IMG/VR virus record: IMGVR_UViG_3300046820_000635 | Length of the DNA stretch: 64,000 bases | Direction: 5' to 3' (one strand) | Source: a virus | Taxonomy: Duplodnaviria; Heunggongvirae; Uroviricota; Caudoviricetes | In this document: piece by piece, positions 1 to 60,089 of the stretch | Layout: the number at the start of each line of letters is the position of its first letter | How positions within the stretch are numbered: the stretch's first letter is position 1 | Program-made: the position numbers and the translations under genes | Notes under the pieces: model-generated | What the model was told of the DNA's origin: nothing | The model's input: the letters and a program-made list of their open reading frames with translations, nothing else | Databases searched by the model: none

Positions 1-735
1 CGCGGCCTCAAGTACGGTGATGCAGACGCTCTCGCAGAAGTTAAGACTTGGCAAGAACATCAATCGTTCTATCTCACAGAGATGTCAGTTGAGTTGGCAA
101 AAGAGCGTGGTAAGTGTTTAGGTTCAGATCAAACACGTTATGGTCAAGGTAAGTTTCCGTGGGAGCTACGTGCCAAGGGTGTTAATGAACTAACAGACTT
201 TACCCCAGAACTAGACTGGGAAACATTAAGAGCACAGATGATTCAATACGGTGTTCGTAATGCTACTAATGGTGCTATTGCTCCTGTTGAGTCCAGCTCA
301 GTTGTTATTGGTTCAACCAACGGTATTGAAATGCCGATGAGTTTGATCAGTACCAAAGAATCGAAGGCCGGCTCGTTCACGCAGGTCGTACCTGAGTATC
401 ACAATGCCAAGGTTCGTAAGAACTATCAACTGATGTGGGAACAGACAGACTGCGAAGGTTATCTAAAGACTAGTGCTGTGTTAGCTGCCTATACTGATCA
501 GAGCATTAGTACTAATACATTCTACAATCCGGCAAACTATCCTGATCGAAAAGTACCAACGACACTGATTGCTAAGAATTTAATGCAGGCACACATGTGG
601 GGTATTAAGACATTCTACTATAGCTTGATCAATAAGGCAGGTAGCAAACAGACTGCCGAAGAAGCACCGTCTCAAACTCCGTTAGCAGTCATTGATTATG
701 ATGATACAGAAGATTGTGAGGCCTGTAAGCTATGA
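1..735 (+). CDS. nrdA: Ribonucleoside-diphosphate reductase alpha subunit, C-terminal part (5' end lies outside the window)
   Basis: Frame 1 is open from base 1. C-terminal tail ...DYDDTEDCEACKL carries the CxxC redox pair typical of class Ia NrdA. Immediately followed by nrdB and a glutaredoxin. Confidence 0.8.
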   Translation, partial: RGLKYGDADALAEVKTWQEHQSFYLTEMSVELAKERGKCLGSDQTRYGQGKFPWELRAKGVNELTDFTPELDWETLRAQMIQYGVRNATNGAIAPVESSSVVIGSTNGIEMPMSLISTKESKAGSFTQVVPEYHNAKVRKNYQLMWEQTDCEGYLKTSAVLAAYTDQSISTNTFYNPANYPDRKVPTTLIAKNLMQAHMWGIKTFYYSLINKAGSKQTAEEAPSQTPLAVIDYDDTEDCEACKL

Positions 736-1280
736 CCTTTAGTTTCTTAAGAAATGTCCTAAAGGAAGGTAGAGAGCATAAGTTAGAAATTTATGCACTA
801 CCTTACGAATCTGATGAGTTGAATCCTGCAATTTCTAAAGACACAATCGACTACCATTATGGCAAGTTGGCCAAGGCCTATGCAGAGCGCTATAATAATA
901 ACGAAGGTGATGCAGGATTTAATGAAGCAGGAGTATTCTTGCATAATATCTTGTTTCAACAATATCAAACTCCTAAGAGTTCAAACAAACCCACGGGCGG
1001 TATTGAAGATTTTATCATCGACCACTATGTGACTTTTGATTTGTTTAAAGATGAGTTTGCTAAAGTAGCAATGAGCATACAAGGTAGCGGTTGGGTTTAT
1101 CTAGCCAAAGATGGCAAGATTAAAACTATCAAAAATCACGAGATTAAGAAAGACATTGTATTATTGATCGACTGGTGGGAACATGCAATGTACGATTATA
1201 AATGGGACAAAAAATCATACCTCACTAACCAATGGAAAATCATCAACTGGGATCATATAAATGTTAGAAACAATATGTGA
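732..1280 (+). CDS. sod: Fe/Mn superoxide dismutase
   Basis: LPYESDELNPAISKDTIDYHYGK (N-terminal His ligand), FLHNILF (second His), IDWWEHAMYDYKWD...NWDHIN (Asp/His ligand motif D-x-W-E-H). 182 aa. Confidence 0.8.
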   Translation: MTFSFLRNVLKEGREHKLEIYALPYESDELNPAISKDTIDYHYGKLAKAYAERYNNNEGDAGFNEAGVFLHNILFQQYQTPKSSNKPTGGIEDFIIDHYVTFDLFKDEFAKVAMSIQGSGWVYLAKDGKIKTIKNHEIKKDIVLLIDWWEHAMYDYKWDKKSYLTNQWKIINWDHINVRNNM

Positions 1281-1881
1281 TATTATGGTAGACGCTTATA
1301 AGCGTAACTGGATTACTAGTCGTGATGGCAATGTAAGTATTCGTCACCACGACCGTGATCACTTTTACATTACACCTAGTGGTGTGCGTAAGCAAACTCT
1401 ACAACCTGATCAGTTTAAGAAAATCAGTATTCATGGCTTACTATGGCAAGAAGAATTCTATTCTGATATTAGTGCTAACTTAAAGCCTAGTGGTGAGATA
1501 CCATTACACTTTGGATTACAACGAGCAATGGGTCAACATAGTAATGATGTTCGAGTAGTAGTTCACGTACATCCTACTTATTGCATTGCGGCCATGCACG
1601 CCGGTATCAACCTTAGTACTATCAGCGATGCATTTCCGGAACTCAATCGCTATACAAAAGTTGCACCCAATGTCGGTGATGTACCTCCTATCAGTCAAGC
1701 ACTTGCTGACCAGTGCCATAAGAACTTACAGTTAGACAGCAACGGAAATATTGCCTACGACATAGTAGGTATCAAAGGTCATGGCGTGGTTGCCATTGAT
1801 ACTAGTCCATGGCGTGCTTACGAGCACATTGAAAGACTAGAACACATCTGCAAGATAGTACTTGCTTCGGGAAAATATTAA
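1261..1881 (+). CDS. Class II aldolase/adducin-family protein (ribulose-5-P 4-epimerase / fuculose-P aldolase-like)
   Basis: GNVSIR...FYITPSGV and VVVHVHPTYCIAA motifs. Start may be the ATG at 1285. Confidence 0.6.
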   Translation: MLETICDIMVDAYKRNWITSRDGNVSIRHHDRDHFYITPSGVRKQTLQPDQFKKISIHGLLWQEEFYSDISANLKPSGEIPLHFGLQRAMGQHSNDVRVVVHVHPTYCIAAMHAGINLSTISDAFPELNRYTKVAPNVGDVPPISQALADQCHKNLQLDSNGNIAYDIVGIKGHGVVAIDTSPWRAYEHIERLEHICKIVLASGKY

Positions 1882-1882
1882 A

Positions 1883-2983
1883 ATGTCAAAACAACAATAC
1901 AATCTAACAACAAAAACAGACTATCTTAATCGCAAGATGTTTCTAGATCCAGCAGGACCGGTTACTATCCAACGTTTTGAAGAAGTAAAGTACAAGAAGA
2001 TTGCAGACTTTGAAACAACAGCACGTGGTTTCTTTTGGGTACCGGAAGAAGTTTCACTGACAAAAGACAGTCAAGATTTTAAAGATGCTAGTGATGCAGT
2101 CAAGCACATCTTCACTAGCAACCTTCTAAGACAAACAGCACTAGATAGTTTACAAGGTCGCGGCCCAAGTCAAATCTTTACTCCGGTTGTTAGTCTGCCA
2201 GAGCTAGAAAGTCTAATGTTCAACTGGAGCTTCTTCGAAACTAACATTCATAGTCGTTCATACAGCCATATCATCCGCAACATCTACAACGTGCCCAAGG
2301 AAGTGTTCAACACTATCCACGATACTACAGAGATTGTATCCATGGCATCTAGTGTAGGCAAGTATTATGATGATCTACATTTAATCAACTGCCGTAAAGA
2401 AATCGGCGAAGTGATTACAGAGCACGAACACATCAAGGCAATCTGGTTAGCACTAAATGCCAGCTATGCACTAGAAGCATTCCGCTTTATGGTATCGTTT
2501 GCTACATCGTTGGCCATGGTCGAGAACAAGATCTTTATTGGTAACGGTAACATCATCAGTTTAATCCTTCAGGACGAGTTGTTGCACAAAGGGTGGACTG
2601 CTTACCTAATCAATCAAGTAGTTAAAGAAGACCCGCGCTTTGCTAAAATGAAGATTGAGTGCGAAGCAGAAGTCTATGCATTGTACATGGATGTTATCCG
2701 TGAAGAAAAAGAGTGGGCAGAATATCTGTTCAAGAAAGGTCCTGTGATTGGTCTTAATGCAAACATTTTGAAAGAGTTCGTTGACTATACTGCCCGCGAT
2801 GCTCTGCATCAGATTGGTATTAAGTATCTTGCACCTAGTCCAAAGTCAACTCCTATTCCTTGGTTCAACAAGCATAGCGATACCAGCAAGAAACAAACAG
2901 CACTACAAGAAAATGAAAGTACTAACTATGTCATCGGTGTAATGAGTGAAAAGTTAGATTACGATGAACTGCCAGCTATTTAA
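1883..2983 (+). CDS. nrdB: Ribonucleotide reductase beta subunit (diiron/tyrosyl radical)
   Basis: MSKQQYN start. NWSFFETNIHSRSYSHIIRNIY ferritin-like diiron motif. Acidic C-terminal tail for alpha-subunit binding. The ORF track starts at 1862, but the ATG at 1883 is more likely. Confidence 0.85.
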   Translation: MSKQQYNLTTKTDYLNRKMFLDPAGPVTIQRFEEVKYKKIADFETTARGFFWVPEEVSLTKDSQDFKDASDAVKHIFTSNLLRQTALDSLQGRGPSQIFTPVVSLPELESLMFNWSFFETNIHSRSYSHIIRNIYNVPKEVFNTIHDTTEIVSMASSVGKYYDDLHLINCRKEIGEVITEHEHIKAIWLALNASYALEAFRFMVSFATSLAMVENKIFIGNGNIISLILQDELLHKGWTAYLINQVVKEDPRFAKMKIECEAEVYALYMDVIREEKEWAEYLFKKGPVIGLNANILKEFVDYTARDALHQIGIKYLAPSPKSTPIPWFNKHSDTSKKQTALQENESTNYVIGVMSEKLDYDELPAI

Positions 2984-3002
2984 AATTTATTAAGGAAGAA
3001 AA

Positions 3003-3227
3003 ATGAAAGCTATCGTTTGGTCTAAGTACCACTGCCCATTTTGCGATCAAGCAAAGGCATTATTAACACAGAAAGGTATTACCTTCGAAGAACGAAAGAT
3101 CGGAGACGGATATTCAAAAGAAGATCTATTAGAAGCTGTACCGACAGCAAGAACTGTTCCGCAGATTTTTATCGGCGAACAGCACATCGGCGGATTTACA
3201 GAACTTAAAGCACACCTACAAGGATAA
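3003..3227 (+). CDS. Glutaredoxin (RNR-associated hydrogen donor)
   Basis: 74 aa. CPFC active site at the N-terminus (WSKYHCPFCDQAKALL). Adjacent to nrdAB. Confidence 0.8.
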   Translation: MKAIVWSKYHCPFCDQAKALLTQKGITFEERKIGDGYSKEDLLEAVPTARTVPQIFIGEQHIGGFTELKAHLQG

Positions 3228-3228
3228 T

Positions 3229-3519
3229 ATGTTAATCGATAAAGGCGCAACAGAAGGCGAAGTAGTAACGCTAAAACTTACTAGCGGAGAAGAACTGGTA
3301 GCAAAGTTAGTAGAAGATGGACCTATGTTTTACAAACTAGGAAGACCTATGGTATTAACTATGGCACAACAAGGACTAGGAATGGTTCCTTACCTGTTTA
3401 CTGTAAATCCAGATAAGGATGTTAAATTGTTTAAATCTACAGTAACAGTTATTGAAGCAACCGATAAGTCGTTTGCCGATGCTTACATTCAGCAGACCAC
3501 TGGTATCAAGTTGGTGTAA
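3229..3519 (+). CDS. hypothetical protein
   Basis: 96 aa ORF, ATGA-coupled to the glutaredoxin gene. Confidence 0.4.
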   Translation: MLIDKGATEGEVVTLKLTSGEELVAKLVEDGPMFYKLGRPMVLTMAQQGLGMVPYLFTVNPDKDVKLFKSTVTVIEATDKSFADAYIQQTTGIKLV

Positions 3520-3529
3520 ATAAAAGATA

Positions 3530-4519
3530 ATGACATCCCCTACTATCAACCCGTCCAACTCGCCCTCTACTTCGGTAGGCGGGCACTTTTTAGTCCCGCA
3601 CACACATAACTTTACATCTGTTGTGGGCCTACGGTTTGGGCCCGATGGTAGAGTTGAGCCTGTGTACGATTCTGCTGACGTCAAGGCAAATAATCAAGTT
3701 ATTGCTCTCTATAACGCAGCCACACCTAAATCGGCTTTTAGTCAAAGTACTGTTCCTCCAGTTACAGTTATACAGGCTGTGCAGAACGAAGATGGAGAAG
3801 ATACTACTCGTGGTAAAGCCGAAGCTGATCGATTCCTTGCTGAAGGAAAAATCACTAAGAAAGAATACGAAGAAATCACTAAAGAAGTTAAACCTGCTGG
3901 AACAGGAACGCCACCTAGTGCCGTAACAGTTAGAGGACAGGATATCACTCCTGTGAGTGAAGGTGACTTTAAGATGTCTACAGTGTTAACACCTAACGGC
4001 ACAACACTGGGCGATATGATTTCCAAGGTAACATTTCCTAGAACAATCCCTCAACTCAGCGAAGGATTTCCGGGAATGACCCCCGCACAGATTGTCAACA
4101 ATCTTGCTGCTCTAGCTCTCAATATTGTTGAACCAGTCAAGCGTCAATATCCAAAAGCATTTCTTACTAATAGTTTCCGCCATGGCGCAAGTATTGGTGG
4201 CGGGCAGCATGGCACCGGACAGGCCTGTGATATACAAATTCGAGGATTGGCAGCACACGACTACTACGATGTTGCATTGTGGATGAGCAAGAATCTACCA
4301 TATGATCAATTATTGTTAGAGTATATGCCCGGAAAGACAGTGTGGATACATATAAGCTATGCAATACCTAATCTACCATACGGTGGAAAATGGATATCTC
4401 AAACTAAACCTCAAAATAAACTAGCAACATTAAGTGCTGCCGCCGGGGGAAAGTTTTTACCGAATCTGCATTCTGATGTAGTTGTGGCAGCAGTACCAAA
4501 TAGAGTAGTAGCAGCATAA
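3530..4519 (+). CDS. Protein with C-terminal peptidase M15-like (zinc D-Ala-D-Ala carboxypeptidase fold) domain
   Basis: FRHGASIGGGQHGTGQACDIQI fits the R..GG...H..G.A.D zinc-site signature of M15/DUF882. A later WIHISY supplies the second His. The N-terminus is Ser/Pro/Thr-rich. Confidence 0.55.
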   Translation: MTSPTINPSNSPSTSVGGHFLVPHTHNFTSVVGLRFGPDGRVEPVYDSADVKANNQVIALYNAATPKSAFSQSTVPPVTVIQAVQNEDGEDTTRGKAEADRFLAEGKITKKEYEEITKEVKPAGTGTPPSAVTVRGQDITPVSEGDFKMSTVLTPNGTTLGDMISKVTFPRTIPQLSEGFPGMTPAQIVNNLAALALNIVEPVKRQYPKAFLTNSFRHGASIGGGQHGTGQACDIQIRGLAAHDYYDVALWMSKNLPYDQLLLEYMPGKTVWIHISYAIPNLPYGGKWISQTKPQNKLATLSAAAGGKFLPNLHSDVVVAAVPNRVVAA

Positions 4520-4929
4520 TGAAAAAGTTTTTATGGAACGTATTAGGTTTCCTGTGTTTAGGTTTAGCCTACTTGGGAGTTATTACTCCCGGATTACCTT
4601 ATAGCATTTGGGTAGTGGCAGCAGCCTATTGTTTCAGCAAGGGCAGCGAACGTATGCACAACTGGATTATGAATCACAAGTTGTTTGGCCCATTCTTACG
4701 TAATTGGGGAGAGAAACGTGTTTTCCCTCAGAAGATGAAATACTTCATGTTGGGTATGATGAGTTTAAGTCTAGTTCTCATGTACTTGGGCGGAGTTAAA
4801 CTTATTGGTATAATCAGTACCGCAGTCTTTATGGCCATTGTTGCTATCTGGGCATGGAGATATCCTTCCTCTGTTGAGGAGCACGACCGTAGAAAAGAAA
4901 CAGGAGAGAAGATAGGATGGCTAAAATAA
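4519..4929 (+). CDS. YbaN/DUF454-family inner membrane protein
   Basis: LGFLCLGLAYLGVITPGLPYSIWVVAAAYCFSKGSERMHNWIMNHKLFGPFLRNW closely matches the YbaN pattern. 136 aa. ATGA-coupled. Confidence 0.6.
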   Translation: MKKFLWNVLGFLCLGLAYLGVITPGLPYSIWVVAAAYCFSKGSERMHNWIMNHKLFGPFLRNWGEKRVFPQKMKYFMLGMMSLSLVLMYLGGVKLIGIISTAVFMAIVAIWAWRYPSSVEEHDRRKETGEKIGWLK

Positions 4930-5165
4930 CTATCGACGAGTTGGTTGAACTGGCATTTGCTGTAGAAGAAGGAGATCCTTTTGATTGGAGCACATTCAAA
5001 CAGGGCAAAGAACAGGCAATGCGTATGATTGCTGCAAGTATAATAGAACAGTTTGACAAAGACGATGTCAATGATCAAGATCAAATTATTATGTTGGCAA
5101 CTATCACTAAGTTAGTTACTGAAAATATGATTCTACATGCACAACTAATGCAGGCAAAGAAATGA
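4917..5165 (+). CDS. hypothetical protein
   Basis: 82 aa acidic ORF, overlapping start and stop. Confidence 0.35.
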   Translation: MAKITIDELVELAFAVEEGDPFDWSTFKQGKEQAMRMIAASIIEQFDKDDVNDQDQIIMLATITKLVTENMILHAQLMQAKK

Positions 5166-5464
5166 AATGCGAAAAGGGCGATTTAGCCAAAATCATTCAC
5201 AGTATACGCCCTACTAACATAGGTAAAACTGTGTTAGTTGAAGAGTATATTGGGCATCTTAAAGAAGGCGAAGTATTTCAGTTTCGTGGTATTTTATGCA
5301 AGGCAATAATTACAGATCATTATTGGTGGATAGAAACTGAATATGGTCTCCAAAATATGCTAGGCGATACGCCAAAAGCATATATTCCAGACACTTGGTT
5401 AGATCCAATACGTCCGGAAAAACAAGTCCAAAAAGAAAAAGTAGATATTGACATCTTTGCCTAA
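5162..5464 (+). CDS. hypothetical protein
   Basis: 100 aa ORF, ATGA-coupled. Confidence 0.35.
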   Translation: MKCEKGDLAKIIHSIRPTNIGKTVLVEEYIGHLKEGEVFQFRGILCKAIITDHYWWIETEYGLQNMLGDTPKAYIPDTWLDPIRPEKQVQKEKVDIDIFA

Positions 5465-5466
5465 AG

Positions 5467-6342
5467 ATGTTTAAATATAAGTTATTGCTGTATGAAGCGA
5501 TGAGAAATAAGTTCAAGACGCGGGGCCGAATAGGCAGCATCGAAGTATCGTCCAGCATAAATACATTTATGTATTACTATGTCTATCAAATAACAAACTT
5601 GTTAAACGGTAAGATTTATGTTGGGAAACATAAATCTTCCAAACATCCTTCTGAAAATCAATACTACGGTTCAGGAAAGCAAATCACTGCCGCTATTAAA
5701 AAATACGGCGTAGAAAACTTCAAGAAAGAAGTCTTGCATTATTGTTCTTCTTTAGAAGAAATGGCAGACAAAGAAGCAGAAGTTGTCACAGAAGATTTTG
5801 TAAAAAGACCCGATACATATAACATGCACAAAGGCGGCCCGGGAGGTTGGGACCACTACAACGGCAGCAAAGAGCACAGTGAAAATTCCCGCAAAGGCGG
5901 GAAAAAAGGTGCCAAGCGATTGAATGACTTTATAGCAGAACAAAAAGCCAACAACACAGAATGGTGGCAAAATTGGTATGCTACAGTTGTCGAACAAAAT
6001 CGTGCCAAGAATTCCAATGGCTGGAGCAATTTTACTCCCGACGAATATGAGCAGAGACGAGCACAAGCAAGTAAGTTAGCAACCGGAGAGGGCAATAGTC
6101 AATACGGTAAGATTTGGATCTCAAATGTATTGACTAAAGAAGTAAAACGTATTACAATCAATGATACTATTCCACAAGGATGGGTCAGAGGAAAGAAAGG
6201 GCACGTTCCTACAAAACTTTGGGTAAATAATGGTGTTAAGGAACATTATATCTTACTTGAAAAGAAACAAGAATATGTCCTTAAAGGTTTTAGTAGTGGC
6301 AGACTTAAATCAAGTATGTTACGAACGAGTATAGTAGTTTAA
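5467..6342 (+). CDS. GIY-YIG homing endonuclease (Seg-like)
   Basis: YYYVYQITNLLNGKIYVGKH (GIY-YIG core), later YYGSG and NFKKEV. Basic C-terminal DNA-binding half. The true start may be the ATG at 5569. Confidence 0.75.
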   Translation: MFKYKLLLYEAMRNKFKTRGRIGSIEVSSSINTFMYYYVYQITNLLNGKIYVGKHKSSKHPSENQYYGSGKQITAAIKKYGVENFKKEVLHYCSSLEEMADKEAEVVTEDFVKRPDTYNMHKGGPGGWDHYNGSKEHSENSRKGGKKGAKRLNDFIAEQKANNTEWWQNWYATVVEQNRAKNSNGWSNFTPDEYEQRRAQASKLATGEGNSQYGKIWISNVLTKEVKRITINDTIPQGWVRGKKGHVPTKLWVNNGVKEHYILLEKKQEYVLKGFSSGRLKSSMLRTSIVV

Positions 6343-6360
6343 TGCTTCGATAGAAAGAAG

Positions 6361-6397
6361 TTCTGGACCCGGCTATCGTATGCCGGCAGGTCCACCA
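6361..6397 (+). ncRNA. ssrA: Putative tmRNA acceptor piece (T-arm-like hairpin plus 3' acceptor strand CAGGUCC-ACCA) of a permuted ssrA gene
   Basis: CAGGTCCACCA (6387-6397) is exactly complementary to GGGCCTG at 6539-6545, giving a G3:U70 pair (Ala identity) plus an ACCA tail. It is preceded by the hairpin CCGGC-tatcgtat-GCCGG. Confidence 0.5.
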
Positions 6398-6538
6398 AAA
6401 GAAAATATATGATTGATAAACCATTACCACCAGCAACAAAATATTGGTGTGACGCATGTGGAACTTTAGAAAGTCCAGATAAACACAAAAATATTTTTTG
6501 TAAGTTGTTTAAATGGTTAGATAGTGTTTTCTTTTGAT

Positions 6539-6750
6539 GGGCCTGAAAGGTTTCGACAGGGCAACAAGTATTGACAAGATCTACTCGGCAATGTAGAAGC
6601 CGTTAGGATTGGGGTCTCCCGGTCGAAGAAGCAAAACAAAGTAAACGCAAACGACTCACAGTTCGCATTAGCTGCCTAAACTCAGCTTAGGGTAAGACAT
6701 ACCTCGTAACAGAAACTCAAGAAGGCTACTTCGGTAGCCTTTCTCTTGAT
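6539..6750 (+). ncRNA. ssrA: Putative tmRNA coding piece: 5' acceptor strand GGGCCUG, UUCGAC D-analog, tag reading frame AND SQF ALAA ending in stop
   Basis: GGGCCTGAAAGGTTTCGACAGGG resembles the E. coli tmRNA 5' end GGGGCUGAUUCUGGAUUCGACGGG. gcaaacgactcacagttcgcattagctgcctaa (6647-6679) encodes ANDSQFALAA*. No downstream T-arm or CCA, so a two-piece arrangement is implied. The hairpin GGCTACttcgGTAGCC at 6725-6740 may end the transcript. Confidence 0.6.
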
Positions 6751-6810
6751 CGTGTAAGAAAACTATTATACAATATCAATGTAACTATATAGGTTACTTC
6801 AGTTTATATT

Positions 6811-7113
6811 ATGATAGGTATTGATATTACTAAAATATCAAGGTTTGAAAAGATGATACATTTTCCAGCCTTTCTTAAAAGATTTAATGTCGAAGGCGAT
6901 GATGCTATCTCTGCGGCTAAGACATGGTCCTGTCTTGAGGCTATAGTAAAAGCAGAAGGTCGGTCATTTGCCTACAATAAAATAAAGATTAGATTTCCTG
7001 CAAATAGTTCTCCGGTAGTAGAAGACCCAGAAGGTATCTTACAAGGATCCTATGCACTGTCACTAAGTCATGACGATGACATATTAGTAGCAGTTGCCCT
7101 GCGGCTCATTTAA
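6811..7113 (+). CDS. Holo-ACP synthase-like 4'-phosphopantetheinyl transferase (AcpS family)
   Basis: MIGIDITKISRFEKMI...FLKRFNVEGDDA...AAKTWSCLEAIVKAEG...LSLSHDDDILVAVALR aligns with the bacterial AcpS motifs GIGTDIVEI...KEAAAKA...SLSHEgdyAiA. 100 aa, shorter than typical AcpS. Confidence 0.55.
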   Translation: MIGIDITKISRFEKMIHFPAFLKRFNVEGDDAISAAKTWSCLEAIVKAEGRSFAYNKIKIRFPANSSPVVEDPEGILQGSYALSLSHDDDILVAVALRLI

Positions 7114-7249
7114 AAAAACTATTGCTGCCATAAAAATATATTAGATAAAATCTATTAAAAACGCTTGGTCTATAGCGTAAATAAAAGTATAATATTAAAC
7201 ATAGAACAACAAGTTCTTAATTTTCATTTCACACACAAAGGAGAAACAG

Positions 7250-7789
7250 ATGAAAACAATCGGCGATAAACTAACAGCATTTGCAGTAACAGGTGTTAAG
7301 CCAGGACAACCAGAAGATGCATATTTCACAATCACAGACCAAAGCTTCGAAGGCAAGTGGAAAGTGATTGTGTTCTATCCAAAAGACTTTACATTTGTAT
7401 GTCCAACAGAAATTGTAGCATACGATAAGTTAAACAGTGACTTTGCTGATCGCGATGCTGTATTGCTAACAGGAAGCACAGACAATGAGTTTTGCAAAAC
7501 AGCTTGGCAAAAAGCACACTCGGATCTACAGAAAATCACTCACACTCAGTTTGCCGATACACAGCGTGGTGAGTTGAGCTTAGTTGAACAGCTAGGCGTG
7601 TTCTACGCACCTGCCGGTGCTGCACTTCGTGCAACATTTATTGTTGACCCACAAAACGTTATCCAGCACGTTACAGTGAACAACCTAGATGTTGGTCGTA
7701 GCCCAGAAGAAACACTGCGTATTCTTGACGCATTGCAAACTGGCGAGCTGTGTGCTTGCAACCGTACTATCGGCGGCGAAACACTTTAA
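7250..7789 (+). CDS. 2-Cys peroxiredoxin (AhpC/Prx1 family)
   Basis: VIVFYPKDFTFVCPTEI peroxidatic Cys motif. C-terminal GELCACN resolving Cys region. 179 aa. Confidence 0.85.
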   Translation: MKTIGDKLTAFAVTGVKPGQPEDAYFTITDQSFEGKWKVIVFYPKDFTFVCPTEIVAYDKLNSDFADRDAVLLTGSTDNEFCKTAWQKAHSDLQKITHTQFADTQRGELSLVEQLGVFYAPAGAALRATFIVDPQNVIQHVTVNNLDVGRSPEETLRILDALQTGELCACNRTIGGETL

Positions 7790-7800
7790 TCGGGACTAAC

Positions 7801-8202
7801 ATGTTGGATTGCTTGATCATCGGAGATAGTATTGCTGTAGGAACTAAAATGTTCCGTCCAGAGTGTGTAGATTATGCACAGGGCGGAATTACCAGTCATG
7901 GTTGGAATAAGAAGTACGGCAATAATAATCTATCAGCTAAATCTGTAATCATTAGTCTAAGCACAAATGATTGGGAAAAAGCAGACACTTACGGTATGTT
8001 GATGAACATACGAACAAAAGTAACAGCTGATAGAGTCTTCTGGGTATTGCCTAATGAAGAATCTAAACCTGATGCTGTTAGGCATGTCCAACGTGTTGCG
8101 GCTCAGTTTAACGACACTGTTATTCCCACCACACGTTGGCAGAAAGATAAAATCCATCCTAGTTGGGCCGGTTACAAAAACATTGCGGAGAAAACAAAAT
8201 GA
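7801..8202 (+). CDS. SGNH/GDSL-type hydrolase
   Basis: MLDCLIIGDSIAVG: GDS block at the N-terminus. 133 aa. Start at 7801 preferred over the track start at 7750. Confidence 0.5.
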   Translation: MLDCLIIGDSIAVGTKMFRPECVDYAQGGITSHGWNKKYGNNNLSAKSVIISLSTNDWEKADTYGMLMNIRTKVTADRVFWVLPNEESKPDAVRHVQRVAAQFNDTVIPTTRWQKDKIHPSWAGYKNIAEKTK

Positions 8203-8717
8203 CAGCATGGGTAGACGCTCTTAAAGAGTCAAGCATTCCTGAGTATGCTAAAGACACAAAACTCAACATTGATGCAGTTATCAAACGTTCAACACTGCCT
8301 GTTGAAGAAGCTGAAGCTGTTGCATTAGCGGCAGCATTTGCAACAGGCAATAGCAAGTTATGGACTTGGGTCCATAGTCAACTTGCAGATCGTAAAGAAG
8401 CAGATGCCGCCTTGACAGCCGCTAGCATTATGGCACAAAACAACGTCTGGTATCCCTACGTTGAAATGGCCGATGATGAACAGCTAAAAGGCTTGCCAGC
8501 ACAGTTGCGCATGAATGCTATCGCAAGCCACGGCGGAACTACAAAGGCTCGTTTCGAAGCATACAGTTTGGCAGCTAGTATTGTGGGCAAGTGTCACTTC
8601 TGTGTTAAGGCACACTACGAAACACTCAAGAAGGAAGGTTACACTGTAGAACAACTTCGTGACATCGGACGTATTGCCGCAGTAATGACCAGTGTTTCTA
8701 GAGTAGTAGCTAACTGA
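8199..8717 (+). CDS. AhpD-like alkylhydroperoxidase / carboxymuconolactone decarboxylase family protein
   Basis: GKCHFCVKAHYETLKKEG CxxC-H motif characteristic of AhpD. ATGA overlap with the upstream gene. GGAG RBS. Confidence 0.7.
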   Translation: MTAWVDALKESSIPEYAKDTKLNIDAVIKRSTLPVEEAEAVALAAAFATGNSKLWTWVHSQLADRKEADAALTAASIMAQNNVWYPYVEMADDEQLKGLPAQLRMNAIASHGGTTKARFEAYSLAASIVGKCHFCVKAHYETLKKEGYTVEQLRDIGRIAAVMTSVSRVVAN

Positions 8718-8722
8718 TAGAC

Positions 8723-8751
8723 TTGACAACCTCCAAACTTTCTGTTATACT
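8723..8751 (+). promoter_or_regulatory. sigma70-type promoter TTGACA-N17-TATACT lying in the loop of an 11-bp hairpin
   Basis: TTGACA at 8723-8728, TATACT at 8746-8751. Flanking inverted repeat CCTCCAAACTT (8730-8740) / AAGTTTGGAGG (8768-8778) contains the GGAGG RBS of the 8785 gene. Confidence 0.6.
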
Positions 8752-8784
8752 AGTCCTATAGTTTAACAAGTTTGGAGGTTTCTT

Positions 8785-9165
8785 TTGAGTATGCATTTAG
8801 AAGGCCCGTGGCTCAGCACTATCGGCAAGAAAAAAGGCAAGAAGAAATTTACTTCTGCCGAATCTAAACGAAAGTTTGAAGAACAGGCAGCAAGTTGGCA
8901 AGCTATCCTAGACAAATACGACAACAAGAAAGTTGTCAAAGAAATAAAGAAAACACTAAAAGATGTATACAAGTTGGATGTACCTCCTGGTCGTAGCAGT
9001 CGCCACATTCCTAGCCGTGACACAGGTATGGTTCCGTGTGTAAAAGCCCCAGATAAAATCTACACCGGAGACAAGATTAAAGGCATTGGCACAATGCACA
9101 AGAGCAATGCAGTGCCGGTGTTTAGCGATGAAGAAGCTCAAGATATTGCCAAAATGCGTCGATAA
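8785..9165 (+). CDS. hypothetical Lys-rich protein
   Basis: 126 aa. GGAGG RBS 7 nt upstream. Confidence 0.45.
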   Translation: MSMHLEGPWLSTIGKKKGKKKFTSAESKRKFEEQAASWQAILDKYDNKKVVKEIKKTLKDVYKLDVPPGRSSRHIPSRDTGMVPCVKAPDKIYTGDKIKGIGTMHKSNAVPVFSDEEAQDIAKMRR

Positions 9166-9463
9166 TCACCGGTTTCGCCCTGTGATATTGGATTATGAGG
9201 TATATATTACTACGTTTCGCAAAGAAACTAAGATAGTTGGTTTGATTTAATGGGATTCATTTTATTAAACCCGCGGGTCTTGGCCAATGAGAAACCCGTA
9301 TTTTCGGGAAGCCAAGGGTCGCCAAAGGCACACAAGTTATGAGATTGTGCGTCCAATGGAGACAACTACACGAAAGTAGGGTTCTTTCAGAGCCTCGTGA
9401 AGTTAACTCCCTTTATGTAATGTGATTTGAAGTTTTGAATCACACCAAGTCAAAGGAGGACTT

Positions 9464-10024
9464 ATGGAAAAAGCATTAAGGCTTACTGCCTTTATTTTAG
9501 GTATTATTTTGGTATCGTTTCTTGTAATGAAAGTAACAGATACTAAGTTCAATAACCTTCGTGAACGAAATGGTTACTACAGCCAAGATGTCGTTACAAT
9601 CAAAACCAGAGAAAGACAACTAGATTGTCTTGCCCTTAATATCTATAGAGAAGCAGGACATGAAAGCTTCGAAGGTAAAGTTGCTGTCGCACAGGTTACT
9701 ATGAATCGTGCGGCACACCCAGACTTTCCAAAAGATATCTGCGGTGTCATTTATCAGAAAAGTGTTATAATGGAAAAAGTCGTATGCCAGTTCTCATGGT
9801 ACTGCGAATCAGGATCCAAAGTAGCACCTTTACAAAATGCTGCCTATAAAGAAAGCTATGAAGTTGCCAAGAAGGTGCTATTGGAAGGATTCAAACTTGA
9901 CGTTCTAAAAGAAGCACTGTACTATCATGCGAACTATGTCAATCCTAAATGGAACTTAGACAAAATCGGAAGTATCGGTAATCACATTTTCTACAAACCC
10001 AAAGACAAAGGAACTAAAAAATGA
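9464..10024 (+). CDS. Cell-wall hydrolase, SleB/Hydrolase_2 family, with N-terminal signal-anchor (endolysin candidate)
   Basis: LDCLALNIYREAGHESFEGKVAVAQVTMNRAAH...QFSWYCESG matches the SleB/CwlJ catalytic-domain signature. N-terminal TM LTAFILGIILVSFLV. AAAGGAGG RBS. Confidence 0.75.
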   Translation: MEKALRLTAFILGIILVSFLVMKVTDTKFNNLRERNGYYSQDVVTIKTRERQLDCLALNIYREAGHESFEGKVAVAQVTMNRAAHPDFPKDICGVIYQKSVIMEKVVCQFSWYCESGSKVAPLQNAAYKESYEVAKKVLLEGFKLDVLKEALYYHANYVNPKWNLDKIGSIGNHIFYKPKDKGTKK

Positions 10025-14157: not shown

Positions 14158-16041
14158 ATGTCTAAGATCATCGGTATTGACCTCGGCACCACCAATTCAT
14201 GCGTGGCTGTTATCGAGAATGGAACTTCCAAAGTTATTGAAAATGCAGAAGGTGCAAGAACAACACCTAGTATCGTCGCCTATGCAAATGACGAAATCCT
14301 AGTTGGTGCATCAGCAAAGCGTCAAGCAGTTACAAATCCCAAAAATACAATCTATGCAGCCAAGCGTTTAATCGGACGTAAGTTTAAAGAACAGGCTGTA
14401 CAAAAAGATCTCGGTCTAATGCCATATGAAATCTACGAAGCAGGCAACGGTGATGCATGGGTTCGTGCTCAAGGCAAAGAACTAGCACCACCACAGATTA
14501 GCGCAGAAGTCTTGCGCAAAATGAAAAAAACAGCAGAGGATTATCTAGGTGAAGAAGTTACTCAAGCGGTTATCACAGTTCCCGCATATTTTAATGACAG
14601 CCAAAGACAGGCTACAAAGGACGCTGGAAAGATCGCAGGCTTGGAAGTACTCCGTATTATTAACGAGCCTACTGCGGCAGCTCTTAGTTATGGCGTTGAT
14701 AAAACTGACAAAGCTGATCGCAAGATTGCTGTTTACGACCTTGGTGGCGGTACATTCGACGTATCAATCATTGAAATCGCGAATGTTGACGGTGACAAAC
14801 AAATCGAAGTACTAAGTACTAACGGCGACACTTTCTTGGGTGGCGAAGACTTTGATCAGCGTATTATGGATTTTCTGGTTGATACATTCAAACAGGAACA
14901 GGGCATTGATCTAACTAAAGATATGCTGGCCCTACAGCGGTTAAAAGAAGCCGCTGAAAAGGCTAAGATTGAGCTGTCTAGTTCTGCACAAACAGACGTT
15001 AACTTGCCCTACATTACAGCAGATGCAACAGGTCCTAAGCACATGAATGTCAAGTTGACTCGTGCTAAACTAGAAAGTCTTGTTGACGAACTAATCCAAC
15101 GTAGTATTGCACCATGTAAAACTGCTATGCAAGATGCTGGCGTAACCGCTAGCGATATTGACGAAGTTATTCTTGTTGGCGGTATGACACGTATGCCAAA
15201 GGTACAAGAAGCTGTTGAGAAGTTGTTTGGTAAGGCTCCTCGAAAGGATGTCAATCCGGACGAAGCAGTTGCTGTCGGCGCTGCTATTCAAGGTGCTGTG
15301 CTAGGTGGTGATCGTAAAGACGTTCTATTGCTAGACGTTACTCCATTGAGCCTAGGTATCGAAACACTAGGCGGTGTAATGAGCAAGTTGATTCAAAAGA
15401 ATACGACTATTCCGACTAAGTCTAGTCAAACATTCTCAACAGCTGAAGACAATCAACCTGCCGTAACTATCAAGGCCTACCAAGGTGAACGTGAACTATG
15501 CCAACACAACAAACTGTTAGGAGAGTTTAATCTCGAAGGTATTGCACCAGCTCGTCGTGGACAACCGCAGATCGAAGTTACCTTTGATATCGATGCTAAT
15601 GGTATCATGCATATCTCTGCCAAAGACAAGAGTACAGGTAAAGAAAATAAAATCACTATCAAGTCTAACAGCGGATTGAGTGACGATGAAGTTCAACGTA
15701 TGATTCGAGAAGCAGAAGAAAATGCCGAAGCCGATAAAAAGGCACGTACTCTTATTGAGACACGAAATCAAGCAGAAGCTATGGTGCATGAACTCAAGAA
15801 AGATACAGAAGATCTAAAAGACGAGCTTACTGACACACAACGTAGCGATGCCGAAGCTGCTATCCAAGCAGTGGCAGACGCAGGCAATGACGTAGATGCT
15901 ATCAAATCAGCAATCGAGAAACTGACTACAGTAGCGGTTTCTTTTGCACAGAAAAAACAGCTTAAAGAATCTGGTACAACACCGGACCAAGCTGCACAGG
16001 ATGATGTAGTTGATGCTACTTTTACTGAGAGCAAAAACTAA
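14158..16041 (+). CDS. dnaK: Hsp70 chaperone (DnaK-like)
   Basis: [26 protein letters not shown], complete 627 aa. AAGGAG RBS. Confidence 0.9.
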
Positions 16042-17162: not shown

Positions 17163-17708
17163 ATGAGTCTAAAAGATATTACCAAAGACCTCCACCATGA
17201 GGCAGAAACAACAAAGTTCGCTAAGATGCTGCTTAGTGGCAAGATTGGCAAAGAAGACTACAGAAACTATCTGTATAACTTAATGGCAGTATACGATCCA
17301 ATCGAATGGTACTGTCAGCGTCAAGGATTCCTTGTCGCAATGCCAGACTTACCTCGTCTAAAATCAATCTATGCAGATTTCATGGAGCTAGACGACGGAT
17401 CTTACTGTTACCTAACTCCAGCAACACTTGAATACCAAGCATACTTACACAAACTAGGTAACGATGAACAACGTAAACACCTTGTTAAAGCGCATCTATA
17501 TTGCCGCCATATGGGCGACTTATTCGGTGGCCAAATCATTAAGAAGCAGGTAGCACATATTTCAAGCGGTAAGTTCTACGACTTTGAAAATGCTGATGCT
17601 ATGAAGATGGCTATTCGCGTAACGCTTACCGACGACTTAGGTGACGAAGCTCGTGTAGCATTTGAATACGCTATTAAGATGATGCGAGATTTGTATAATG
17701 GAGAGTAA
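17163..17708 (+). CDS. Heme oxygenase (HO-1 family)
   Basis: LKDITKDLHHEAETTKF...YRNYLYNLMAVYDPIEW and AHLYCRHMGDLFGGQIIKK match the proximal-His and GDLSGGQ helix motifs of heme oxygenase. Confidence 0.7.
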   Translation: MSLKDITKDLHHEAETTKFAKMLLSGKIGKEDYRNYLYNLMAVYDPIEWYCQRQGFLVAMPDLPRLKSIYADFMELDDGSYCYLTPATLEYQAYLHKLGNDEQRKHLVKAHLYCRHMGDLFGGQIIKKQVAHISSGKFYDFENADAMKMAIRVTLTDDLGDEARVAFEYAIKMMRDLYNGE

Positions 17709-18381
17709 AGTTTGGGACTCACTGATTGCTGTACAACAGTACTTTGAAGAGTCATTTAATAATACAGGAAAGGAAGTCTATGAGACGGGTATGGATCGCT
17801 TTAACAGCCCTGGTTGGGTTAACCGTGTTTGGACCAGTGGGTCTTATCGTCGTGCTCACGTTGATGTTGTGGATGCTAGGAAAACAAAAGGACTGTGGAT
17901 GATGCACTGCTGTGTGTTTCCTCATACACACAATCCGGCACCAATCTTTGGTTTTGATGTTATTGCAGGCAAGAATAAAATCACAGGTTGTTTTTATGAC
18001 TACAGCCCTGCAGGCGATCCCGAACACCCTATGCTTGACTGGTTCGCAGACGAAGCACAACAACTAGAATGGGTTAAGACACGCAAGTTACCCGAGTGGG
18101 CTGAACGTATCTTTAGTACCAGTATGGTAGCTGCTGCTAATGTTAGTGACGAGACCGAACTTGCACAGATTGTAGACATGGCCTATCGTGGAATCGATAC
18201 TTACCTGCAATCAGTAGGCAATACCAACAATACAGCACATGACACAACAGACGCACAAAACTTCTATTGCGAAAATCAAAAGATGAATCCGCATACACCA
18301 AAAGTTATGGTCAGTCTTGGACTTAGCGAAGAAGACGTAAAGGTCTTTATTCAGGATTGTCTGTTTCCTGAAATCAAATAA
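17698..18381 (+). CDS. Ferredoxin-dependent bilin reductase (PebS/PcyA/PcyX family)
   Basis: RRAHVDVVDARKTKGLWMMHCCVFPHTHNPAPIFGFDVIAG matches the FDBR core (R.AH.D......L...H.V.FP......P.FG.D...). Overlaps and follows the heme oxygenase gene. Confidence 0.7.
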   Translation: MESKVWDSLIAVQQYFEESFNNTGKEVYETGMDRFNSPGWVNRVWTSGSYRRAHVDVVDARKTKGLWMMHCCVFPHTHNPAPIFGFDVIAGKNKITGCFYDYSPAGDPEHPMLDWFADEAQQLEWVKTRKLPEWAERIFSTSMVAAANVSDETELAQIVDMAYRGIDTYLQSVGNTNNTAHDTTDAQNFYCENQKMNPHTPKVMVSLGLSEEDVKVFIQDCLFPEIK

Positions 18382-18671: not shown

Positions 18672-18755
18672 GGTTTTCTTGCTCTAGATTAAACTCAGCG
18701 TTTAATTGCTGCCCCCGTGTATCTAAATACTATACCGATTACCGGGAGCGAATCA

Positions 18756-19247
18756 ATGAAAAGAACAATAGTAGGATTGGGGATTACTCTGGCCGTATAC
18801 ACGACATACGCAGCAGAAATCCAACATAGCTTTAATAGTCCGTCATTTAGTGGTGTAGGATATAGCAGCCATGTTCTTACACTTAAACAACTAGAAGATC
18901 AGCAGAAAGATAAAAACAAAGCTGCGATCGACGCATTAAAAGCTGCTGCTGAAAGAGAAGCAGCAAATACTCCACAGGCTAGATTTAAAGCCAGCATGGA
19001 AACAAGAGTCTACAGCGAGTTAGCTAAACGTATTAGCGATAGCCTATTCGGTAGCACAACTACAGCACCTACCTGCAATGGCGGTGGATCTAGTTCTTCT
19101 AGCAGCCCTTGCGCTGCTATTGAGTTAGTAGGACAAAACATTTCTTGGTGGATTACAGGATCTAACATTATTGTTAGAATTCAGGATGCTAATGATCCTA
19201 ACACATACACAGAAATGACCATGCCATATGCGGCATTTAGCATCTAA
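18756..19247 (+). CDS. CsgF-like curli assembly component (secreted)
   Basis: Signal peptide MKRTIVGLGITLAVYTTYA. Mature N-terminus EIQHSFNSPSFSGVGYSSHVLTLKQ parallels CsgF [29 protein letters not shown]. GGGAG RBS. Confidence 0.6.
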   Translation: MKRTIVGLGITLAVYTTYAAEIQHSFNSPSFSGVGYSSHVLTLKQLEDQQKDKNKAAIDALKAAAEREAANTPQARFKASMETRVYSELAKRISDSLFGSTTTAPTCNGGGSSSSSSPCAAIELVGQNISWWITGSNIIVRIQDANDPNTYTEMTMPYAAFSI

Positions 19248-19258
19248 GGATTAGAAAC

Positions 19259-20215
19259 ATGACAAAAACAATTATATCCTTAGCAATCATTGCATTATTG
19301 AGCGGATGTGCAACAAGTTCAGCTATACATGAAAAAGTCACAGGCAAACAATTTGATGAGCCAGTAGTTGAACAGAGTACATACTTAAAGAAAGATACAA
19401 ACAAGTTAAAGCCGCCAGCAACTGGTCCCATTCCTATTGCCGTATACGGATTTCAGGACAAGACTGGACAACGTAAGAGCATTCCGAACATTGCTAGTTT
19501 GAGTTCGGCAGTAACACAAGGTGCAGACAGCTATTTGATTAAAGCATTACAAGATGTAGGTGACCAGCGTTGGTTTACTGTTCTTGAAAGAGTTGGTTTA
19601 GAAAACCTAATCAAAGAGCGTCAAATGATTCGACAGATGCGTGAGCAGTATCAAGGTAAGGATGCAAAGCCTTTACCTCCTATGATGTTTGCTGGCGTAA
19701 TAGTTGAAGGTGGTATTATAGGCTATGATTCAAATACTCTAACTGGTGGTAGCGGAGTTAGATTTTTAGGAGTCGGAGCAACTACACAATACCAAAGCGA
19801 TACTGTAACTGTTAATCTACGCACAGTTAGCGTAAGCACAGGAGAAGTATTAACCAGTGTTACTATCACAAAAACTGTGTTAAGTTACATGGACAAGTTC
19901 GGAGTTCTGAAGTTTGTTGAGCAAGGTACACAAAGTATCGAAGCAGAAACAGGCGGCAGTATCAACGAAAGTATCAACAAAGCTGTGAATCTAGCAGTTC
20001 AAGCAGCCGTTGTTGGTACTATACATGAAGGTGCAAGGAAAGGGCATTGGAACTTTAAGGAGGAGAAAAAAGATGAGTTGGTTCAATCACAAACCTCGCC
20101 GCAAAGAGCCGCCGAAACTGTACCCTCACAACCACAGCCCAGCGACAAAGAAAGCGCTGGATCAGGCAAAGCAGTTGAGTCCGACAAAACAAACGGACAA
20201 AAAGAAGTAAAATAA
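19259..20215 (+). CDS. CsgG-like outer-membrane lipoprotein secretion channel
   Basis: Lipobox LLSGCATSS. IAVYGFQDKTGQ...RWFTVLERVGLENLIKERQMIRQ...AGVIVEGGIIGYDSNTLTGGSGVRFLGVGATTQYQSDTVTVNLRTVSVSTGEVLTSV aligns along the whole E. coli CsgG sequence. Confidence 0.85.
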   Translation: MTKTIISLAIIALLSGCATSSAIHEKVTGKQFDEPVVEQSTYLKKDTNKLKPPATGPIPIAVYGFQDKTGQRKSIPNIASLSSAVTQGADSYLIKALQDVGDQRWFTVLERVGLENLIKERQMIRQMREQYQGKDAKPLPPMMFAGVIVEGGIIGYDSNTLTGGSGVRFLGVGATTQYQSDTVTVNLRTVSVSTGEVLTSVTITKTVLSYMDKFGVLKFVEQGTQSIEAETGGSINESINKAVNLAVQAAVVGTIHEGARKGHWNFKEEKKDELVQSQTSPQRAAETVPSQPQPSDKESAGSGKAVESDKTNGQKEVK

Positions 20216-20228
20216 CAGGGAGCTCACT

Positions 20229-21065: not shown

Positions 21066-21068
21066 GAC

Positions 21069-24064: not shown

Positions 24065-24080
24065 TACAGCAAATAAATAG

Positions 24081-33971: not shown

Positions 33972-34046
33972 GCGCTATTAGCTAAGTGGCATAGCAGGAG
34001 CCTCTAAAACTCCGTAGCGTGGGTTCGATTCCCACATAGCGCACCA
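33972..34046 (+). tRNA. tRNA with CUA anticodon (amber-reading suppressor-type tRNA), CCA encoded
   Basis: Perfect 7-bp acceptor GCGCTAT/ATAGCGC, D arm GCTA-AGTGGCA-TAGC, anticodon arm GGAGC-CTCTAAA-ACTCC (U33, A37), T arm GTGGG-TTCGATT-CCCAC, discriminator A, CCA. Confidence 0.65.
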
Positions 34047-40677: not shown

Positions 40678-40723
40678 ACATTTATTTATCCAATCACTAC
40701 GATATTATACAACATTTGTAGTA

Positions 40724-40752: not shown

Positions 40753-40778
40753 ATACACATCAACAAAGAAAGTATCGT

Positions 40779-41302: not shown

Positions 41303-41313
41303 CCCAAAACAAG

Positions 41314-60084: not shown

Positions 60085-60089
60085 TATAT

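Follow-up and report, generated by a model that had tools for sequence, protein, structure and literature searches.

Does a virus that carries several antioxidant genes within a few kilobases encode one defence system, or separate parts that answer to different needs? The question is raised by the left end of a 64,000-nucleotide stretch of viral DNA (Caudoviricetes; IMG/VR record IMGVR_UViG_3300046820_000635), hereafter the window, in which genes for an Fe/Mn superoxide dismutase (SOD), a glutaredoxin (Grx), an AhpC-type peroxiredoxin (Prx) and an AhpD protein lie within 8 kb. The initial annotation had taken these four as a single self-contained system for detoxifying superoxide and peroxide, possibly directed against oxidative-burst-type abortive responses of the host. 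Our analysis leads to a different answer: the genes probably form two separate accessory antioxidant modules that depend on the host for reducing power. The first is embedded in a ribonucleotide reductase (RNR) operon, nrdA-sod-(class II aldolase-like)-nrdB-grx, and the second is the peroxidase unit prx-sgnh-ahpD, in which an SGNH-like hydrolase gene lies between prx and ahpD.

One line of evidence for separate modules is their distribution. We searched 143 fetched viral loci with the window's proteins by tblastn, and in these relatives the two modules are present or absent independently. Seventeen loci, not all of them distinct, span both positions: SOD alone is found in 6, Prx with AhpD alone in 7 and both in 4. 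Linkage of Prx and AhpD holds throughout the 69 distinct loci. The two are immediate neighbours in 28, and in the other 41 they are kept apart by varied cargo that includes SGNH-like, class II aldolase-like, TerC, serine hydroxymethyltransferase (SHMT), inosine monophosphate dehydrogenase/GMP-reductase-like, DOPA-dioxygenase-like, NAD-epimerase, GIY-YIG and HNH genes. At the other position, the nrdA/nrdB interval holds SOD in 29 of 36 distinct loci and is empty in 5; SOD stands there alone or is accompanied by an aldolase-like gene, a small conserved open reading frame (ORF), HNH endonucleases or IscU plus IscA, and a glycosyltransferase-like ORF also occurs in this interval in relatives. Within the window itself, unrelated genes lie between the modules, as do a transfer-messenger RNA (tmRNA) gene and promoter-like sites that point to separate transcription units. 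The proposal of a single cluster working as one system is thus not borne out. Each module would have been gained and lost on its own, both at junctions that appear to have been invaded repeatedly by homing endonucleases and other cargo.

The electron supply also counts against a self-contained system. Characterised AhpD needs Lpd, lipoylated SucB and NADH (PMC6626918), and no thioredoxin, thioredoxin reductase, Lpd or lipoyl-domain protein was found among about 125/131 + strand ORFs of ≥55 aa (Pfam, E ≤ 1e-4). With no reductase for AhpD or Grx found in the 64 kb, the claim of self-containment fails for the window. We therefore consider it very unlikely that the genes make up one self-contained, co-expressed superoxide and peroxide system that evolved against an oxidative-burst-type abortive infection. 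Four intact enzymes do lie within 8 kb on one strand, and early transcription of both modules from host-type promoters or operons is probable; but the modules are inherited independently and stand apart in the DNA, no electron donor is encoded in the window, Grx belongs with the RNR, and no result identified or implied an abortive system based on reactive oxygen species (ROS).

The enzymes themselves are as first described. All four genes were confirmed at their assigned positions on the + strand (Table 1) with catalytic residues intact, including the four SOD metal ligands, and alignment revealed no substitution at the catalytic residues of SOD or AhpD, which are invariant in 39 and 70 unique relatives, respectively. 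The SOD exceeds the curated cut-offs of both Pfam domains (Sod_Fe_N, 35 bits; Sod_Fe_C, 67 bits), and its AlphaFold (AF2) model, with a predicted local distance difference test score (pLDDT) of 87, matches many solved Fe/Mn SODs in Foldseek (template modelling score, TM, ~0.76-0.82). His42, His71, Asp147 and His151 align with the metal positions of the solved enzymes and Tyr50 is the equivalent of Tyr34. The water-coordinating residue is His136 (Asn135-His136), placing the protein in the C-terminal His type known from SodFM3 and SodFM4 enzymes, for which criteria at the Gln/His position and Tyr34 are available (PMC10172142). The ligands, the Tyr34 equivalent, the water-coordinating His, Glu150 and a GSGW motif are all invariant in relatives; these key residues are kept in 39/39 full-length unique viral relatives, one further sequence being gapped there, and the key positions are also kept in homologues from the PA5oct-like Pseudomonas jumbo phages and Vibrio phage 2.275.O. 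A relative of the SOD occurs in 24 of 50,697 isolated-phage records, and the record annotation of the PA5oct SOD-like protein states that mass spectrometry detected it.

The SOD also departs from the familiar pattern in several respects. Its HxxxHH motif is incomplete, reading H42-Y-G-K-L46-A47 with Leu46/Ala47 where His30/His31 are usual, and Leu46 is invariant in the family. The XD-2 residue, two before the Asp ligand, is Leu145, a position that holds Gly, Ala, Thr or Val in most of the characterised SODs discussed (PMC10172142); together with the C-terminal His, this Leu hints at an Fe-preferring or cambialistic enzyme. Scores against the NCBIfam equivalog models fall below the cut-offs (SodB, 80 vs 348 bits; SodA, 38 vs 363 bits). 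The absence of His30/His31, a short hairpin and Leu145, combined with a position near nrdB and, in relatives, near IscU and IscA, could suggest that the protein is no dismutase at all but a metal-binding protein that has kept the SOD fold, perhaps one that supplies Fe/Mn to NrdB or acts as its chaperone. We regard this as highly improbable, given that the invariant residues amount to a full catalytic apparatus. Moreover, SodFM4 enzymes without the last His of HxxxHH include active SODs (PMC10172142), and the missing motif therefore does not bar membership of the wider family.

One local oddity of the window's SOD deserves description. Just past the ligand His151 (window 1179-1210, + strand), an in-frame 3-nucleotide deletion with clustered substitutions gives EHA-MYDYKW where the family has EHAWALDYQH. 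The same change is present in another contig (L082), and a frameshift, considered as the cause of this divergence in the 3′ region, was rejected on these grounds.

In the second module, Prx is an AhpC of the three-Cys kind found in mycobacteria and Burkholderia, and its best solved relative is AhpC of Mycobacterium tuberculosis (2bmx, 6e-43). Its peroxidatic motif, P44-K-D-F-T48-F-V-C51, Arg127 and a resolving pair, Cys168-Ala-Cys170, that aligns with C-A-(C/S)-N of 2bmx are invariant in 65 unique sequences; the resolving cysteines are Cys174/176 in M. tuberculosis and Cys171/173 in B. thailandensis (PMC6626918). Prx scores below the equivalog for AhpF-partnered AhpC (TIGR03137, 112 vs a cut-off of 272 bits), and the ORF Pfam scan found no AhpF-like ORF in the 64-kb window. 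AhpD passes TIGR00778 (30.9 vs a cut-off of 27.8) and matches Pfam CMD (1.6e-12), while the TIGR00777 match, spanning model positions 3-169 of 177, stays at 111 bits under a cut-off of 192. Its only solved relatives are M. tuberculosis AhpD structures (1gu9/1knc, 1e-21). Glu120, Cys132-His-Phe-Cys135 and His139 align with Glu118, Cys130, Cys133 and His137 of 1gu9, and all 70 unique sequences keep these catalytic residues. Among the 50,697 isolated-phage records, 21 contain a relative of Prx and 1, an unverified record, a relative of AhpD.

The idea that AhpD reduces Prx as it does in mycobacteria is well supported, by the M. tuberculosis proteins as best solved relatives, by the linkage in 69/69 distinct loci and by the gene order of bacterial operons. 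The best clearly cellular AhpC matches among species-representative bacterial genomes, at 66-72% identity, are in a Rickettsiales endosymbiont and in Oxalobacteraceae (Herbaspirillum, Collimonas and others); the top bacterial matches (79-89%) are on short contigs of metagenome-assembled genomes with mixed taxonomy and are probably mis-binned phage DNA. In the Oxalobacteraceae and Rickettsiales genomes ahpD lies immediately downstream of ahpC, and this shared order, as judged by comparison of genes, indicates that the phage pair was captured from bacteria as an ahpC-ahpD operon. In B. thailandensis the system has been reconstituted, with AhpC (Cys57, Cys171, Cys173) reduced by AhpD (C131xxC134) and Lpd, SucB and NADH as the source of electrons, and it reduces H2O2, organic hydroperoxides and peroxynitrite (PMC6626918). 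By analogy with the family, Cys51 of the phage Prx would reduce H2O2, organic hydroperoxides or peroxynitrite, the resulting sulfenic acid would be resolved by Cys168 or Cys170, and the Cys132/Cys135 pair of AhpD would then reduce the Prx disulfide. AhpD would in turn be recharged by the host, most likely through a lipoylated E2 (SucB or AceF), Lpd and NADH, as in M. tuberculosis and B. thailandensis.

All four enzymes are under strong purifying selection (dN/dS 0.07-0.10). Median values against the window are 0.087 for SOD, 0.104 for Grx, 0.068 for Prx and 0.074 for AhpD; these are rough figures, with dS near saturation, and all four are clearly far below 1. This bears on the view that the genes are passive hitch-hikers at hot spots targeted by endonucleases, with no function selected in the phage. 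Both junctions do carry very diverse cargo and homing endonucleases, including the GIY-YIG gene of the window itself. Such low dN/dS largely refutes the idea, though, as catalytic residues stay invariant at 50-100% identity, the Prx-AhpD linkage survives varied insertions between the two genes, and the promoter and ribosome-binding site are conserved. We find passive carriage scarcely credible. The likely benefit to the phage would be an infected cell whose metabolism stays competent in the face of oxidative stress, over the long course of infection by a jumbo phage.

Module 1 is a tightly packed operon. The ATG of sod overlaps the nrdA stop codon (ATGA), the aldolase-like gene overlaps sod by 20 nucleotides, and grx starts 20 nucleotides past nrdB. 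In relatives nrdA is conserved upstream of SOD or nrdB, and the NrdA C-terminus (...DCEACKL) forms a CxxC redox tail. NrdB has E. coli R2 as its best solved relative (1e-73) and shows the Asp/Tyr pairing of class Ia with all ligand motifs, according to published criteria for RNR subclasses (PMC8463856). The initial annotation had counted Grx among the stress-defence genes, an assignment that its context argues against. Wherever the locus of a relative contains nrdB, grx comes immediately after it, and the protein matches profiles of NrdB-Grx fusion proteins; because of this linkage and these matches, it is best read as the probable RNR reductant, most probably acting on the C-terminal CxxC of NrdA. 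Both active-site cysteines are kept in 32/32 full-length unique relatives, position 13 being Y or F. From family knowledge and the conserved linkage, Grx would take electrons from host glutathione and pass them to this CxxC. No YfaE-like ferredoxin was seen within the 64-kb window.

A further observation concerns NrdB. In the first metal motif it is one residue longer between Glu and His than E. coli R2 (E-T-N-I-H vs E-T-I-H; 2237-2251, + strand), and the extra residue is common to both related nrdB sequences inspected (L089 and L101).

What, then, does SOD do inside an RNR operon? As a member of its family, and translationally coupled to nrdA, it would convert superoxide to H2O2 and O2 in the infected cell, and its position suggests that the chief beneficiaries would be NrdB, through its diferric-tyrosyl-radical cofactor, and the pools of iron and Fe-S. 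Superoxide inactivates the tyrosyl radical of E. coli R2. The case for a SOD role in protecting the RNR iron-radical cofactor is circumstantial, and it is supported because the nrdA-sod coupling and the presence of IscU/IscA in the same cassette recur in relatives. Intact IscU (NifU_N 4e-55; three Cys, Asp and His ligands) and IscA/ErpA-like proteins (Fe-S_biosyn 7e-19) are encoded beside SOD between nrdA and nrdB in several relatives, and distant contigs with no nrd genes close by still have an IscA-like gene next to SOD; the 64-kb window itself contains neither IscU nor IscA. These arrangements were seen in L101 (10533-11217), L089, L113, L116-L119 and L133, and in L124-L126 and L135.

A stronger version holds that SOD, with IscU and IscA in relatives, is dedicated to the care of the NrdB radical and its iron supply and is not a general cytoplasmic defence. 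It can point to SOD lying between nrdA and nrdB in 29/36 distinct loci, to its coupling to nrdA, to its Isc neighbours within and outside the nrd context, and to NrdB being of the O2-activated class Ia, whose cofactor assembly needs no superoxide (PMC8463856). Set against these points, the nrdA/nrdB junction is a general insertion hot spot (HNH, glycosyltransferase-like and aldolase-like genes), many relatives have nrdA-nrdB without SOD, the PA5oct-like and Vibrio phage 2.275.O homologues are not near RNR genes (they lie near ClpS, FtsH or topoisomerase genes instead), and the loci were chosen with SOD as bait. We thus treat dedicated care of NrdB as a tentative and rather doubtful reading. 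Equally speculative, and in our judgement unlikely, is a larger scheme in which the nrdA/nrdB interval would be a metal-cofactor cassette, SOD (with IscU/IscA) protecting and re-supplying NrdB while AhpC-AhpD taps host lipoamide and NADH and removes the H2O2 made by SOD. If true, viruses would thereby have their first known module dedicated to protecting the RNR cofactor. Mobile endonuclease genes sit at the nrdA/nrdB junction of T4-like phages too.

The transcription signals are consistent with a separate second module. Ahead of prx stand a sigma-70-like promoter, a 5′-untranslated-region (5′-UTR) hairpin and a strong AGGAG ribosome-binding site. Of 61 unique upstream regions, 35 have the promoter motif ~48-57 nucleotides ahead of prx, whatever gene lies further upstream, whereas shuffles average 0.9 and never exceed 4. 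The hairpin stems vary in sequence with pairing kept (TAGAAC...GTTCT, CAGTG...CACTG, CAGCG...CGCTG), and the hairpin could be an mRNA-stability element or an operator. Because these upstream elements are conserved and the next promoter-like site comes after ahpD, prx-sgnh-ahpD looks like an early transcription unit of its own, predicted to be read by the host polymerase. A generic scan of positions 1-9500, informative only after comparison with relatives, gave 29 promoter-like sites vs 22.8 ± 5.2 in shuffles, not a clear enrichment, and 13 terminator-like sites vs 6.8 ± 2.6, mostly on the non-coding strand.

Several points weigh against our reading of two host-dependent modules of working enzymes. 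AhpD or SOD served as bait in fetching the loci, which biases counts of presence and absence. Promoter calls are consensus matches in AT-rich DNA, and the relatives are not independent samples. The 64 kb seen are part of a genome that is probably >300 kb, so a phage-encoded reductase could lie elsewhere. Finally, reduced or altered activity is conceivable for the SOD, in view of its lack of His30 and His31, its truncated N-terminal hairpin and its NCBIfam scores well short of the equivalog cut-offs.

Table 1. Positions of genes, RNA genes and putative signals in the window
Feature	Position	Strand	Basis or remark
nrdA 3′ part, class I RNR large subunit	1-735	+	Translation, synteny; runs off the window's left end
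sod, short Fe/Mn SOD, 182 aa	732-1280	+	Pfam, structure alignments, model, conservation
Class II aldolase/adducin-family gene	1261-1881	+	HxH (His102/His104), GHG (173) and PSGE (76) motifs
nrdB, class Ia-type RNR small subunit	1880-2983	+	LDSLQGR, HSRSY, EAFRF and DELLH motifs; C-terminal Tyr
grx, dithiol glutaredoxin	3003-3227	+	C11-P-F-C14, TVP at 51, GG at 63; Pfam Glutaredoxin 1e-14
GIY-YIG homing endonuclease gene	5467-6342		
Permuted two-piece tmRNA gene	6333-6744	+	Rfam RF04321, 91.6 bits vs gathering score 47, E = 3.5e-17
Phosphopantetheinyl transferase (PPTase)-like ORF, 100 aa	6811-7113	+	ACPS match 24.3 bits, under the cut-off of 25
Sigma-70-like promoter, TTGGTC-17-TATAAT	7165-7193	+	Upstream of prx; position conserved in relatives
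5′-UTR hairpin	7202-7217	+	Downstream of the promoter-like site of prx; position conserved in relatives
prx, AhpC-type peroxiredoxin, mycobacterial/Burkholderia three-Cys kind	7250-7789	+	Pfam AhpC-TSA 2e-22
sgnh, SGNH-like hydrolase, 133 aa	7801-8202	+	GDS at 8-10, Asn56, Asp116-x-x-His119; Pfam match below cut-off
ahpD, alkylhydroperoxidase D	8199-8717	+	TIGR00778, Pfam CMD, alignment with solved AhpD; JGI call has the same start
Strong promoter-like site, 11/12 matches with TG	8723-8751		Just after ahpD
DnaK/Hsp70 and ClpP genes	14158-16041, 58333-58926	+	Proteostasis genes
Heme oxygenase and ferredoxin-dependent bilin reductase	17163-18381	+	Overlapping genes
CsgF-like, CsgG-like (1e-51), FecR-domain, discoidin-domain and CHASE2 adenylate/guanylate cyclase genes	18717-26135	+	Envelope/signalling-type run
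Lone tRNA, anticodon CUA	33972-34046	+	Amber-suppressor-like (ARAGORN label 'Pyl')
Nicotinamide mononucleotide (NMN) adenylyltransferase/NUDIX and nicotinamide phosphoribosyltransferase	38932-42796	+	NAD salvage pair
Array of 20 tRNA genes	59999-63524	+	One member (62682-62768) with an odd anticodon loop

Besides the four enzymes, the 8-kb stretch contains ~10 other genes and one RNA gene. From grx to prx these are a conserved 96-aa ORF, a lysis-like ORF, a DUF454 gene, two small ORFs, the GIY-YIG gene, the tmRNA gene and the PPTase-like ORF. The tmRNA fills a seemingly empty 470 nucleotides after the GIY-YIG gene; positions 6647-6679 encode its tag, ANDSQFALAA, and a hairpin comes after it (6722-6741). 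ARAGORN gave no call for this gene, which was found by Rfam, and the beta-proteobacterial tmRNA model matches here more weakly, below its gathering score. The PPTase-like ORF is present in the closest relatives only and has a promoter-like site of its own (6746-6774).

Two cargo genes are lodged within the modules. The aldolase-like gene is highly conserved (dN/dS 0.04) and keeps its metal-binding motifs, with MtnB and FucA as nearest profiles, far below cut-offs, and its position varies, lying in the sod-nrdB interval of some phages and the prx-ahpD interval of others (for example L011, 9376-9987). The SGNH-like ORF starts 11 nucleotides past prx, and its stop codon overlaps the ahpD ATG, an arrangement of translational coupling. 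Its rate of evolution is high (dN/dS 0.30; 41-74% identity in relatives once the two closest contigs are set aside), but it keeps its GDS, Asn and DxxH positions invariant in 17 homologues, and has zero solved sequence relatives and only sub-threshold Pfam matches. The prx/ahpD cargo hot spot is seen in loci L009, L013, L017, L029, L034, L035, L037, L045, L057 and L067. Their recurrence at both junctions raised the idea that the aldolase-like and SGNH-like genes are working parts of the redox modules; we rejected it as unproven, since TerC, SHMT, GMP-reductase-like, DOPA-dioxygenase-like, epimerase and endonuclease genes are found at these junctions as well.

The nearest relative (L080/L085; IMGVR_UViG_3300046779_000619) was compared over window positions 1-10000. 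Identity is 99-100% in nrdA, the aldolase-like gene, nrdB, Prx, the SGNH-like gene and AhpD, and drops to 79% in SOD and 82% in Grx, which indicates allele exchange at the redox genes; most of the GIY-YIG gene is gone. One JGI contig of 2.4 kb is identical to the window in Prx, the SGNH-like ORF and AhpD, and its gene calls agree with those used here.

The window comes from an uncultivated jumbo phage and represents an early region of host-like genes in its genome. It codes almost wholly on the + strand, has ~40% GC, and positions 1-9000 gave zero megablast matches against the 50,697 phage records. Relatives of its AhpD and SOD proteins occur on hundreds of IMG/VR viral contigs, some of 270-364 kb, with at least 588 AhpD-encoding stretches in IMG/VR alone; metagenomic proteins of the short-SOD family lie on contigs of up to 370 kb. 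Long relatives include IMGVR_UViG_3300021963_000021 (364 kb) and 3300031857_000002 (320 kb). Contigs of this size place the window in a jumbo-phage lineage. Hints to the host diverge: the closest cellular AhpC proteins are in Oxalobacteraceae and a Rickettsiales genome, the beta-type tmRNA match is weak, and heme oxygenase and bilin reductase genes are present. We rejected tblastn matches in records named for Staphylococcus, Listeria, Enterococcus, Acinetobacter and Ralstonia as phage precedents, these being unannotated fragments and probable bacterial DNA; the Ralstonia-named phage record carries the label UNVERIFIED_ORG.

Elsewhere in the window, genes for proteostasis, bilin metabolism, envelope and signalling functions, NAD salvage and tRNAs (Table 1) make the antioxidant genes one facet of a broad cellular housekeeping set in this phage. 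DnaK is 60-73% identical to matches in the phage collection, mostly in records resembling bacterial DNA, and is also related to proteins of huge uncultured phages and Lak phages. Matches to the ClpS and Hsp20 families occur among the small ORFs of the window.

These results have implications beyond this locus. A very abundant lineage of uncultivated jumbo phages carries complete, selected copies of cellular antioxidant enzymes, as modular accessory genes at endonuclease-prone junctions, and these genes draw on NADH, lipoamide and glutathione from the host. That SOD, IscU and IscA are found inside the RNR operon suggests a way in which phages may keep a radical enzyme working in a stressed cell, and the short SOD, with no His30 and a C-terminal His, offers studies of SOD metal preference a compact natural variant. 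Relief of oxidative stress has been ascribed to the peroxiredoxin, thioredoxin and glutaredoxin of cyanophages (PMC12801897), and viral genes listed from Lake Erie metagenomes include ahpC, nifU and Fe/Mn SOD (PMC12542629); the general idea of phage antioxidant genes is therefore already known. No description of AhpD or of an AhpC-AhpD pair in a phage was found in the searchable literature, with subscription journals outside this scope, and AhpD is absent from verified isolated-phage records among the 50,697. Within that literature three things appear to be undescribed: a phage AhpC travelling with its specific reductase AhpD, a short C-terminal-His SOD without His30 as a widespread phage subfamily, and a SOD/IscU/IscA cassette inside an RNR operon.

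Comparison with known systems shows where each module is conventional and where it differs. Like T4 nrdA-nrdB/nrdC, E. coli nrdAB-yfaE and the NrdB-Grx fusions, module 1 follows class Ia nrdA and nrdB with a small dithiol redoxin; unlike them, it includes SOD and an aldolase-like gene, and in relatives also IscU and IscA. The phage SOD shares with cellular SodFM enzymes the two-domain fold, four ligands, Tyr34 and the C-terminal water-coordinating His, but it is ~10-25 residues shorter than solved cellular SODs (182 vs 191-226 aa), mostly in the N-terminal hairpin, and has Leu/Ala for both His30 and His31 and Leu at XD-2. With its phage homologues, the PA5oct gp261 group and Vibrio phage 2.275.O gp049, it shares 41% and 39.5% identity, respectively; the window SOD is embedded between nrdA and nrdB, whereas these homologues are not.

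Module 2 resembles the AhpC-AhpD systems of M. tuberculosis and B. thailandensis in its three-Cys AhpC (a peroxidatic Cys and a C-terminal C-x-C), in the Glu/CxxC/His set of AhpD and in the order ahpC then ahpD, and its Prx is ~61-72% identical to AhpC of Burkholderiales. It differs in that the pair is encoded by a phage, here with an SGNH-like gene inserted between the two, in that its AhpD motif is C-H-F-C rather than C-S-H-C with a TIGR00777 score below the cut-off, and in that no Lpd or SucB genes lie nearby in the window, leaving these for the host to supply. Like other phage antioxidant auxiliary metabolic genes, both modules encode ROS-detoxifying enzymes of the sort thought to sustain the infected cell; in contrast to them, the peroxiredoxin of the window is accompanied by its own reductase partner, AhpD.

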